DNA from: Escherichia coli
GTDB lineage: Bacteria; Pseudomonadota; Gammaproteobacteria; Enterobacterales; Enterobacteriaceae
Reading direction: 5' to 3' (one strand)
NCBI RefSeq assembly: GCF_001677475.2
Contig: NZ_CP015229.1
Length of the DNA stretch: 64,000 bases
The position numbers were made by a program, and so were the translations under genes. The notes beneath the pieces were generated by a model. It ran no database searches. It was not told where the DNA came from and worked only from the letters and a program-made list of their open reading frames with translations. This document shows, in pieces, positions 2,240 to 8,320 of this stretch; positions within the stretch are counted from its first letter, which is position 1; the number at the start of each line of letters is the position of its first letter.

Positions 2240-2737
2240 TCACCGCAGCATCGTCATCAGCTCCATGGGAGAACGATGCTGCTTTATCAGATCACGCATT
2301 ACCCGCATATGCGGTGCGGAGTAAGAATAAAATGCCTGATAGCCCGCACAAAGCACGTTGTCTGGCGTCTCCTCCCGAGCGTGCGGACACAGCCGATGCC
2401 AGTCGCACGCCTGGCAGTCACGGCGCGATTGCGGGTTTTCGCTGCCACACCATTTTTGTAGGGTGGCGTCAAAAAGCTCAATCGAAATACGACTGATATC
2501 TGCCCGCACCCAACACTCAAACAGGGCAATTAAAAATTTCCCCCACAGCTCTGCTGTCACCGAAGCGGCCGTCATATCGCCCCGGTCATCAAATTCAAGA
2601 TGGGGAATGAGCTGTACGGAGCGGATGCCCCGTTGTTTGAAATTGTGATAAAAATCGGCAGGTTGCAGAGCATCCTTGTACTCTACAACCAGTTTATGCC
2701 TGTCCTCTTCAGCATCAATGACCTGACTTCCTGTCAT
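2240..2737 (-). CDS. yidF: Conserved hypothetical protein YidF (165 aa)
   Basis: ORF in the expected position and length after emrD; Cys-rich. Confidence 0.75.
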   Translation of the reverse strand: MTGSQVIDAEEDRHKLVVEYKDALQPADFYHNFKQRGIRSVQLIPHLEFDDRGDMTAASVTAELWGKFLIALFECWVRADISRISIELFDATLQKWCGSENPQSRRDCQACDWHRLCPHAREETPDNVLCAGYQAFYSYSAPHMRVMRDLIKQHRSPMELMTMLR

Positions 2738-3096
2738 GCGACTCTCTCAATAAATACGATAAGTTGATGTATATGCGTTACAGCAAACAGTATTGCGAGA
2801 GATAACACCGCGAGGGAGATCAAAAATTTGTCACGGACTACGTGAAATTGGGAAAAATCGCTATTCGTGACATCCATTAAATTGCGATTACGGGTGTAGT
2901 GCCAGAGGATCAGCGCCACGATGGCGAGGATGCCAATCGAAATCCAGAATAACATGCCCGCCTGGTGCCAGTTGTGTTTGATAGCCAACGCCATCAACGC
3001 GCCGTAGCCCAGCATGGTACGAAACCACGCCAGTGATGTGCGCTCCGGCTGCAGCCCTGGGTCGGCAATGCGTCTGGCTTTGCGGCTATCCGGCAT
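2734..3096 (-). CDS. yidG: Inner membrane protein YidG (120 aa)
   Basis: Hydrophobic 120-aa ORF overlapping yidF by 4 nt. Confidence 0.75.
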   Translation of the reverse strand: MPDSRKARRIADPGLQPERTSLAWFRTMLGYGALMALAIKHNWHQAGMLFWISIGILAIVALILWHYTRNRNLMDVTNSDFSQFHVVRDKFLISLAVLSLAILFAVTHIHQLIVFIERVA

Positions 3097-3433
3097 ACAA
3101 CACCAGTCCCATAACGATCACCGCCACGACCATCAATATTAAGCTGATGATTAATAAGCTGTTGGTATAGGGCAGGTCCTCTTTCAGACGCATCGCTTTT
3201 TCATTGCGTAACCAGCGCAAGTAGCCATACATCGCTAACCCGCCGGAAAACAGACACAACAACAACGCCAGCAGTTCGCGAATGACGGGCGTGGCGAAAT
3301 CTGGCGCAAGTTGGTCAAGCCCAACCCCCGCCGCCAGAAATCCTAGTGCGGTACGGATCCACGCCAGAAAAGTACGCTCATTAGCCAGCGAGAAGCGGTA
3401 ATCGGGCGCTTCTCCGAGGCGGGAAATTTTCAT
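3086..3433 (-). CDS. yidH: Inner membrane protein YidH (DUF202, 115 aa)
   Basis: Hydrophobic 115-aa ORF overlapping yidG; operon-like arrangement yidHGF. Confidence 0.75.
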   Translation of the reverse strand: MKISRLGEAPDYRFSLANERTFLAWIRTALGFLAAGVGLDQLAPDFATPVIRELLALLLCLFSGGLAMYGYLRWLRNEKAMRLKEDLPYTNSLLIISLILMVVAVIVMGLVLYAG

Positions 3434-3603
3434 TGTTGCTCCTTTGCAATTTCACTAACGCTCTATCTTTAGCGGTTTTTTTTAAGAATTTCGTCCGCCC
3501 GTTTCCTGATATGCTTTTGCCATCCGCTGCAAGGAGGTCAGATGGGTATCATAGCGCAAATTGACATCCTCCACGCCCTGAAGGACGAGGATCCCTGCTA
3601 CGT

Positions 3604-4812
3604 TCAGGCTGTCGCCTGAATCATTTCGGTGGGTTCCTGCTTCAACGAGCGGCCTGACTGCACCATCTCTCCACAGGCAAGAACGGCGTGCCCCGCCGCT
3701 AAAATGTTACGAGCGCCATTTACATCGGCGTTCGCTGTATATCCACATACCTGGCATCTGAATTTACTTTGTGACAGGCGATTTTCTTTCGCTGTATGAC
3801 CACAGCACGCGCAACGCTGGCTTGTGTACGCTGGCGGAACAGCAAGCACCTGACCGCCACTCCAGAGCTGCTTGTACTCAAGCTGGCGGCGCATTTCATA
3901 CCAGCCCTGATCCAGTATCGTACGGTTTAAACCTGATTTTGCCCGGACATTGCGCCCCGGCTGGCTGACCGTACCCGCTGCTGACTTTGACATGTTGCTG
4001 ACCTTCAAATCCTCAATGACTATCATTGCGTGGTTTTTACTGACGGTCGTTGTGACTTTGTGAAGGTAGTCCCTGCGGATATTTGCGATACAGGAATGCA
4101 GTCGCTGTATTTTGCGTTTCTGCTTCTGCCAGTTGTTGCTGAATTTGACCTTGCGGCTTAACTGTCGCTGAAGTCTCGCCAGCGTCTTCTGGTTTTTCTG
4201 AAAACTGTTTACAGGCCCAAAGACTGTGCCATCTGACAGCGTGGCGAGTTTAGCCACGCCAGCATCCAGCCCGACCATTGATGCTGAAGGGTGAACCGGA
4301 GTTGATACTTCACTTTCAGTCTGAATACTGATGTACCACTTACCGCAGGACTGGCTGACAGTGACATTTTTCACAACACCCGTGACCTGACGGCTATTCC
4401 GGTAGCGCATCCAGCCAAGTTTCGGCAGAAAAATACGGCTTTTTTCCTGATCGAGCTTAACGCCCTGCGGGTAGCGGAATGCATCATTCTGTCCCCGCTT
4501 TTTGAATCGGGGAAAAGCAGCCCGCTTCTGGAAGAAGTTTTTGTAAGCCCGCTCAAGGTCTTTCAGTGACTGTTGCAATGGCTGTGAGGGCGAATCTTTA
4601 AGCCATTGCATTTCAGTGGCGTTTTTCCACTCAACCAGCCAGGAAGCCATTTTCCCGTAAGGGATGTATTTATTACCGGCCTCATGATTCTCATTCTGAA
4701 GCGCCAGAGCACGATTGAAAACGAAACGACATGCGCCTGCGAAGCGCCTCATTTCACGCTCCTGTTGGCCACCTGGTCTTAACTGGAATTTAAATGCCTG
4801 TAGTCGTTTCAC
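3604..4812 (-). CDS. tnpB: TnpB (OrfB) of an IS200/IS605-family element, RuvC-like with C-terminal zinc finger; putative RNA-guided nuclease
   Basis: 402 aa; N-terminus [17 protein letters not shown] (the KxYKFRLxP-type start), C-terminal CxxC...CxxC (CACCGH...CQVCGY). Confidence 0.85.
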
Positions 4813-4882
4813 AGGCCAAATGATACTTTGGTCTGTGAATAAAGAAACCGATATCCGACGGGGAAGGCATTGTGTTTTCCTG

Positions 4883-5251
4883 ATGCATGTTCACCTGGTC
4901 TTTGTCACCAGATACCGACGTCAGATTTTTGACTATGACGCGACAGAAAAACTACGCACTTACTTTTCAAATGTATGTGCTGATTTTGAAGCTGAACTGG
5001 TTGAAATGGATGGCGAACCAGATCACGTCCATTTGTTAATTAACTATCCTCCCAAACTGGCGATATCCAGTCTGGTAAACAGCCTCAAAGGCGTATCGGG
5101 TAGGTTACTGCGACGAGATCGACCAGATATTGCAGTCAGGTATTACTACAAAGGCGTTTTGTGGAGTCCTGGCTATTTTGCCAGTAGCTGCGGAGGTGCG
5201 CCAATATCCGTCATCCGCCAATACATTGAACAAAAGCAAACACCTGGTTAA
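4883..5251 (+). CDS. tnpA: IS200-like Y1 (HuH) transposase TnpA
   Basis: Contains MHVHLVFVTRYRRQ and HVHLLINYPP (HuH motif) and the C-terminal Tyr region; start uncertain (ORF opens at 4715 but that would overlap tnpB; Met at 4883 chosen). Confidence 0.7.
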   Translation: MHVHLVFVTRYRRQIFDYDATEKLRTYFSNVCADFEAELVEMDGEPDHVHLLINYPPKLAISSLVNSLKGVSGRLLRRDRPDIAVRYYYKGVLWSPGYFASSCGGAPISVIRQYIEQKQTPG

Positions 5252-5381
5252 GTGGAAAACCTCGCCTTATATCCCCGCCCTGAAGGACGGGGTTTTACGG
5301 CGCACCGGATAAATTTGGTTATGCGCCGTCAGCCGTGCTGAAGAATAGGGACCAGCACCCAACGGATGCCAGTCCACACAA

Positions 5382-8320
<2,939 letters not shown>

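Follow-up and report, generated by a model that had tools for sequence, protein, structure and literature searches.

IS609 between yidH and a glvA-like gene in Escherichia coli: element ends, predicted ωRNA and the loss of yidIJKL

Introduction

What lies between yidH and the glv-like genes of an Escherichia coli chromosome from which yidI, yidJ, yidK and yidL are missing, and is the insertion sequence (IS) found there connected with the loss of these genes? The question is raised by a stretch of 64,000 nucleotides (contig NZ_CP015229.1 of assembly GCF_001677475.2), which was analysed over its whole length and is called here the window. A sequence-only reading of this DNA had recognised a member of the IS200/IS605 family with divergent tnpA and tnpB genes at positions 3434-5381, had expected an omega RNA (ωRNA) for the nuclease TnpB close to it and had considered that the element may be active. 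Our analysis identifies the element with high confidence as a complete IS609, an IS200/IS605 family member of the IS605 type, which occupies 3561-5308 and has its top strand on the minus strand of the window. It further indicates that the right-hand part of the element encodes a conserved ωRNA and that the loss of yidIJKL, as judged from its junctions, is a deletion bounded by the IS, which corrects the annotation of the locus.

Results

Read on its minus strand from 5313 to 3560, the window can be aligned with IS609 of K-12 over 1754 nt, ungapped and at 97.5% identity, so that full-length nucleotide identity with an annotated IS609 was found. The K-12 copy is annotated in MG1655 as insertion sequence:IS609 (NC_000913.3, 1503161-1504908, 1748 bp) with insQ and the tnpA pseudogene yncK. 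Beyond the element itself the two copies share TTTAT ahead of the left end (LE) and a single T past the right end (RE). At eight distinct E. coli loci IS609 starts with CCGGTGCGCC right after TTAT, within TTTAT at six and CTTAT at two of them, and finishes with GGAGGATGTCAA, while the flanks beyond are unrelated. All copies finish in GGATGTCAA at the right end. In relatives from about 30 other species, among them Citrobacter, Serratia, Morganella, Yersinia, Xenorhabdus and Pantoea, DNA similarity to the 3′ region of tnpB stops at the same right-end base, the exact stop being seen in about 25 relatives from other species. Because the ends match those of other copies and of the relatives, the element is delimited as 3561-5308 (Table 1). 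The earlier interval of 3434-5381 was thus correct as to the kind of element and its place between yidH and the glv-like genes. Its limits were too wide, since it included 127 nt (3434-3560) and 73 nt (5309-5381) of host DNA.

Both ends of the element carry the same motif in the same orientation, as had been observed before: the window contains two copies of the 14-mer CGCCCTGAAGGACG and no more, one at 3574-3587 and one at 5276-5289, each on the plus strand (chance expectation 0.01). A subterminal hairpin and a cleavage site are present at each end, so the element is not a partial IS lacking one terminal hairpin, as it could have been. The tetranucleotide AAAA stands directly ahead of the left-end hairpin and is presumed to be the guide tetranucleotide for the TTAT cleavage site. 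At four other loci, comparison with K-12 showed clean insertions of IS609, with flanks contiguous to the base and target duplication absent. The features of the IS200/IS605 family are therefore found together: a Y1 HUH TnpA, imperfect subterminal hairpins on the same strand in place of terminal inverted repeats, and insertion at a fixed tetranucleotide without duplication. The plus strand shows a negative GC skew over the whole window, which makes the IS top strand (minus) the lagging-strand template. This orientation is a bias of the IS200/IS605 family and not a strict criterion. Taken from its sequence, the copy is complete and potentially autonomous.

Both genes were found to be intact, in agreement with the first reading. 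TnpB, of 402 aa, matches the NCBIfam model NF040570 'RNA-guided endonuclease TnpB family' with 383.6 bits (E=1e-114, cut-off 100) and can be aligned with TnpB of ISDra2 (8EXA/8BF8/8H1J) over 374 residues (E=1e-52). The alignment shows that the RuvC Asp (GLDAG), Glu (IEDLK) and Asp (NADVNGA) are kept together with both CxxC pairs, that is, the split-RuvC D-E-D and the zinc-finger/TNB region of a TnpB nuclease, and Pfam domains PF12323, PF01385 and PF07282 are recorded on an identical protein. TnpA, of 143 aa, matches NF033573 'IS200/IS605 family transposase' with 145.7 bits (E=8e-43, cut-off 55); when aligned with TnpA of IS608 (2A6M) and of ISDra2 (2XM3) it keeps the HUH motif (DHVHLL) and the catalytic Tyr (RQYIEQ). 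The two genes are divergent and their start codons are separated by 7 nt. The orthologous tnpA in E. coli C and ET201 carries a 1-nt deletion and a GAA>TAA change, and yncK of K-12 carries a TGA within tnpA; the window tnpA has none of these lesions.

The last 240 nt of the element were aligned with the corresponding region of 30 relatives from other species, and the 31 sequences were folded together with RNAalifold. This gave 45 pairs in nine helices, 16 pairs of which show compensatory changes. In an independent count, standard pairs were found in 96.3% of the cells, as against 36-48% when the partners were slid by 1-3 columns; double changes were seen at 16 pairs, compared with 2-9 for slid partners; and none of the observed pairing measures was reached in 500 shuffles. 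A number of the helices with covariation are located within the coding sequence of tnpB, and a long-range helix joins 3702-3707 with 3564-3569. Many of the pairs are G·U, so that only the tnpB-sense strand fits. The single-sequence RNA fold of 3541-3800 (z = -2.3) is suggestive only. A structured scaffold that spans the 3′ end of tnpB and the right end, as in OMEGA systems, is thus supported by covariation, and on this comparative basis we read the minus-strand scaffold at about 3561-3707, with its 5′ end inferred, as a conserved ωRNA. Folding of the right-end region had been proposed as a check of such an RNA. Its expected place at the tnpB 3′ end proved to be right; its coordinates of about 3450..3650 on the minus strand need revision, because 3450-3540 falls outside the RNA and 3651-3707 had been missed.

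Conservation among the copies and relatives ends at 3561 and the flanks differ at every locus. The predicted guide of the window copy is accordingly the adjoining host sequence 5′-UUUGCGCUAUGAUACCCAUC, its length being taken from the TnpB literature. This sequence occurs once in the window, where it is preceded by TCAA (the right end) and not by TTAT; therefore the resident copy would not be a target. TTAT is the transposon-adjacent motif (TAM) used for IS609 TnpB (PMC12781874 Table S2).

Two groups of relatives were noted aside. Six genomes (Citrobacter, Escherichia whittamii, Photorhabdus, Arsenophonus and others) carry only the last 30-100 codons of tnpB with the right end, and thus retain essentially the ωRNA region without the nuclease gene. 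In nine others, including Photorhabdus and Klebsiella pneumoniae ATCC 13883, similarity to the tnpB 3′ region is 83-88% until 71 nt before the right end, after which the sequences diverge; this suggests that their right ends may be mosaic.

Relative to K-12, yidI, yidJ, yidK and yidL are absent at the window locus, as had been noticed before. In place of the IS, K-12 has exactly 4666 bp, which begin at nucleotide 20 of yidI and stop 77 nt short of the yidL end; yidJ and yidK are lost entirely, and yidI and yidL for the most part. The window matches the K-12 locus (L003) up to position 3434 of the latter and then from 8101 on. On the K-12 top strand TTTAT stands just ahead of the left-end junction and the deleted block also ends in TTTAT; the right end is joined to the DNA immediately after this second target, which argues that the deletion was mediated by the IS. 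In strain ET201 (L002, 4128-4763) a nested variant was found, in which yidI and a 3′ piece of yidJ are kept. Its left junction is identical, its right end abuts yidJ and its deleted block ends in GTTAC. The chance of a junction after TTAT is 0.006, and that of both junctions after TTAY is about 1e-4.

It could be supposed that yidIJKL had been absent ancestrally, or was lost for unrelated reasons, and that the IS landed in an already shortened region. A simple insertion next to intact yidIJKL was not found in 5426 complete E. coli genomes or in metagenome contigs, and this would fit such a history. However, 19 nt of yidI and 77 nt of yidL adjoin the IS ends to the base, which makes the loss derived and not ancestral; a TTTAT target directly precedes the distal breakpoint (p=0.006); and the nested variant shares the left junction while its different right junction follows TTAC. 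An ancestral or unrelated absence is thus highly improbable, and it was rejected on the yidI and yidL remnants that abut the IS ends. The comparison of the yidH-glv junction across strains, which had been suggested as a test, therefore ties the IS to the loss of the four genes.

Junction patterns were then counted among the 5426 genomes. The window-type right junction is present in 288 (~5%) and the ET201-type right junction in 16 (ET201 and 15 others); the left junction in yidL was counted in 299, and 3971 have an uninterrupted K-12-type yidL 3′ end at the insertion site. The junction expected of a simple insertion in yidL, GATGTCAA/GTTTAAAGGC, occurred in 0 of the 5426 genomes and, in an exact-pattern scan, in 0 metagenome contigs. 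A left end joined to the yidI or the yidJ site was seen in 0 genomes for each. The junction that a second copy in yidI would give, TGATTTTAT/CCGGTGCGCC, gave 0 matches in the exact-pattern scan of metagenome contigs as well.

Table 1. Coordinates of the element, its parts and the neighbouring features in the window.
Feature	Position	Strand	Remarks
emrD	1042-2232	plus
yidF, yidG, yidH	up to 3433 (yidH 3086-3433)	minus
Host DNA, yidH-yidI intergenic region and first 19 nt of yidI (3542-3560)	3434..3560	plus	window 2700-3560 = K-12 L003 2575-3434; yidI start 3416
Predicted ωRNA guide	3541..3560	minus	flank of the right end; antisense to first 19 nt of yidI
IS609, complete, 1748 bp	3561..5308	minus	two-gene IS200/IS605-type element between yidH and glvA-like gene; top strand = window minus strand; LE at 5308, RE at 3561
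RE cleavage tetranucleotide TCAA	3561-3564	minus
Predicted ωRNA scaffold	about 3561..3707	minus	overlaps last ~34 tnpB codons (~104 nt) and 43-nt non-coding right end
RE subterminal imperfect hairpin	3570..3591	minus	top-strand DNA fold; helix 9 with compensatory changes in relatives
tnpB (insQ-type RNA-guided endonuclease), 402 aa, GTG start	3604..4812	minus	NF040570
tnpA (Y1 HUH transposase), 143 aa, intact	4820..5251	plus	NF033573
LE subterminal hairpin CCCCGTCC-TTCA-GGGCGGGG (top strand)	5273..5292	minus	DNA fold -11.7 kcal/mol
Target/transposon-adjacent motif TTAT (plus strand ATAA; TTTAT with 5313)	5309..5312	minus	TTAT 5′ of LE at 8/8 E. coli loci
yidL 3′ remnant, 77 nt	5309..5385	plus	window 5309-5611 = K-12 L003 8101-8402; yidL end 8177
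Terminator-like hairpin, 12 pairs	5349-5375	minus	just downstream of glvA stop codon, within retained yidL remnant
glvA-like 6-phospho-alpha-glucosidase gene, intact, 440 aa	5382-6704	minus

The yidL remnant is annotated in E. coli C as a partial coding sequence of 75 nt. The glvA-like gene is followed in window order by a gene of the phosphotransferase system (PTS) and then by yidP. It is intact here, whereas glvG of K-12 is a pseudogene that lacks about 490 bp, equivalent to window 5612-6103. On the other side of the element, transcription of tnpB and of the ωRNA points toward yidH-yidG-yidF, the start codon lying 127 nt past the right end, and read-through into the yidHGF operon is possible. 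Far from the locus, window 40001-48000 has a G+C content of 33.3% and a GC skew of -0.127, the rest of the window being at 47-54% G+C, and looks like a horizontally acquired island.

Discussion

The steps by which the element would move are those established for IS608 and ISDra2, applied here to the IS609 of the window. On the top strand, which in the window is the minus strand and the lagging-strand template, TnpA would recognise the subterminal hairpin of each end; its cuts, 3′ of TTAT on the left and 3′ of TCAA on the right, would excise a single-stranded circle. The predicted excision joints are AAATTTAT/TTTGCGCTATG (TTTAT/TTTGCGC) in the donor and GGATGTCAA/CCGGTGCGCC (TCAA/CCGG) in the circle, which would reinsert 3′ of another TTAT with no target duplication. 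TnpB would bind the ωRNA, a transcript of the 3′ part of tnpB together with the right end (scaffold about 3707-3561), whose 3′ guide would be the adjoining host sequence from 3560 to about 3541. The complex could then cut DNA in which TTAT precedes the guide (TTAT followed by TTTGCGCTATGATACC), which is the case for the empty site after excision or for an unoccupied allele. Cutting of such sites is proposed to favour retention of the element.

How the deletion was formed is a further question. The inferred history begins with an insertion 3′ of TTTAT in the 3′ end of yidL. Later the right end would have been joined directly 3′ of other target-like sites on the same strand: in the ET201 type this would be GTTAC within yidJ, and in the window TTTAT at yidI nucleotide 20, with the removal of 4666 bp. 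The left-end junction is common to both nested deletions, which stop directly 3′ of TTAY beside the right end in each case. They may record an RE-anchored 'adjacent deletion' made by a single-strand transposase, in which TnpA links the 3′-OH of a right end that has not been excised to a target cut in cis, also on that lagging-strand template, and the intervening host DNA is expelled as a circle; we consider this detailed account rather doubtful. Alternatively, homologous recombination could have taken place between an IS609 at the yidL TTTAT site and another, equally oriented, at the yidI TTTAT site (or at yidJ GTTAC for the ET201 type); the one copy left would then combine the left flank of the first with the right flank of the second. 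Such recombination would yield exactly the observed junctions, the distal target motif included. It is established that the strand bias of IS200/IS605 elements makes nearby copies direct repeats, the orientation here is consistent with this, and direct repeats of 1.7 kb recombine readily. On the other hand, three independent insertions within 4.7 kb would be required of an element that is otherwise found at few fixed loci, and the junctions of a left end with the yidI or yidJ site, which the second copies would have left, are the ones that the survey did not find. Recombination of two copies is accordingly a serious possibility that still falls short of being probable.

Both pathways give the observed product and the data do not separate them. 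Direct strand transfer by TnpA from the right end to an in-cis target is slightly favoured over recombination because it needs one insertion and not three. Some observations weigh against direct transfer: no intermediate of any deletion pathway was found in the 5426 genomes or in the scans of metagenome contigs, and the ET201 junction follows TTAC and not the canonical TTAT. Relatives use TTAT as well as TTAC targets. A limited literature check found no description of adjacent deletions caused by IS200/IS605 elements in vivo.

The suggestion that the element may be active is compatible with its sequence. It receives no positive support, as the exact TnpA and TnpB were seen at one locus only: each of the two protein sequences occurs in 55 contigs, and all of the 24 contigs examined have it at the same locus. 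A copy of either at another locus, which would be a sign of recent transposition, was found in none of these 24. Two further results also speak against recent movement. IS609 copies at different loci differ by 1.5-2.5%, which is similar to the divergence of their hosts, and no second copy or fragment of IS609 was found elsewhere in the window. A σ70 consensus scan of the element was uninformative, as its 2 matches are at background level (1.8 expected) and neither is positioned to serve tnpA or tnpB. The window copy has 27-32 differences to orthologous and 28-44 to paralogous copies, about the divergence of the host flanks. The pattern of variable sites is mosaic, and with regard to an origin of the intact tnpA by gene conversion, the window copy is no closer to the orthologous than to the paralogous copies. 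Taken together the comparison suggests that IS609 insertions may be old and mostly static.

It could be possible, therefore, that the copy looks intact and is an inert relic, in which tnpA no longer mobilises the element and only tnpB and its ωRNA are maintained, either selfishly or for a role at the level of the host. We give this explanation an even chance. It agrees with the confinement of the exact proteins to one locus and with the similar divergence of copies and host flanks. Among ten IS609 copies (the window copy and nine others) tnpB is full length in 9/10, with a ratio of nonsynonymous to synonymous differences (pN/pS) of 0.31; tnpA is annotated as a pseudogene in most, including E. 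coli C, ET201 and most of the paralogous copies, and its pN/pS is 0.60. That tnpB outlives tnpA is a familiar pattern. Against a relic stand the window tnpA, which is without a lesion and keeps its HUH motif and catalytic Tyr, the completeness of both ends, and another locus (SJ7, yeaQ-yoaG) with a 143-aa tnpA annotated as intact.

The discovery value of the locus is small, because IS609 and InsQ/TnpB are already known and catalogued in K-12, the TAM has been used experimentally, and the yidH-IS609-glvA arrangement, which also exists in the common strains E. coli C and ATCC 8739, is itself already known. What is gained is the map of a naturally occurring E. coli TnpB locus whose tnpA is intact, with exact ends, TAM, predicted ωRNA scaffold and predicted guide. 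The nested, target-directed and right-end-anchored deletions are its sole mildly unusual feature, and their TTAY-directed junctions offer a concrete, testable case for adjacent deletions caused by TnpA.

Among known systems, the ωRNA resembles two RNA families of Rfam, both found on the minus strand at E≤1. The window core CCUGUGGAG...GAAGCAGGAA (3634-3677) matches the consensus of RAGATH-18 (RF03064; right-end RNAs, reRNAs, of IS607 TnpBs) with 29.5 bits, below the gathering threshold of 44.9, and HgcC (RF00062) aligns over 3548-3671 with 19.3 bits, below the gathering threshold of 50. These scores denote resemblance and not membership, and filing of the ωRNA under either family was rejected. 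RNAs derived from RAGATH-18 are guide RNAs of IS607 TnpBs (PMC11061315).

The TnpB-ωRNA complex of ISDra2 (8EXA, 8BF8, 8H1J) is similar in its catalytic D/E/D residues and zinc finger, in the position of the ωRNA over the 3′ end of tnpB and the right end, and in a guide taken from flanking DNA, which for the window copy is a prediction. The two differ in the TAM, which is TTGAT in ISDra2 and TTAT in the window, and their ωRNAs are not alignable by Rfam.

IS608 of Helicobacter pylori is the mechanistic paradigm for TnpA. It shares with the window element a Y1 HUH TnpA (2A6M, E=1e-18), subterminal hairpins on one strand, a right end that terminates in TCAA, and a tetranucleotide 5′ of the left hairpin that specifies the left cleavage, AAAG for TTAC in IS608 and AAAA for TTAT in the window. 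Among the relatives (L013-L059) left ends with a TTAT flank mostly carry AAAA and those with TTAC carry AAAG, as in the IS608 rule; the exceptions are L013, with TTAC and AAAA, and L029 and L050, with TTAT and AAAC-type tetranucleotides. In IS608, however, tnpA and tnpB are co-directional, whereas they are divergent in the window, as in IS605, and the target is TTAC and not TTAT.

The closest likeness is to the IS609 of K-12, which has the same length of 1748 bp, the same ends, the same divergent layout and a TnpB of 402 aa. It differs in its genomic site and in the TGA of its tnpA (yncK), which is intact in the window copy. Finally, a deletion of 4.7 kb adjoins the IS609 of the window, whereas simple insertions are found at the four other loci for which a comparison with K-12 can be made.

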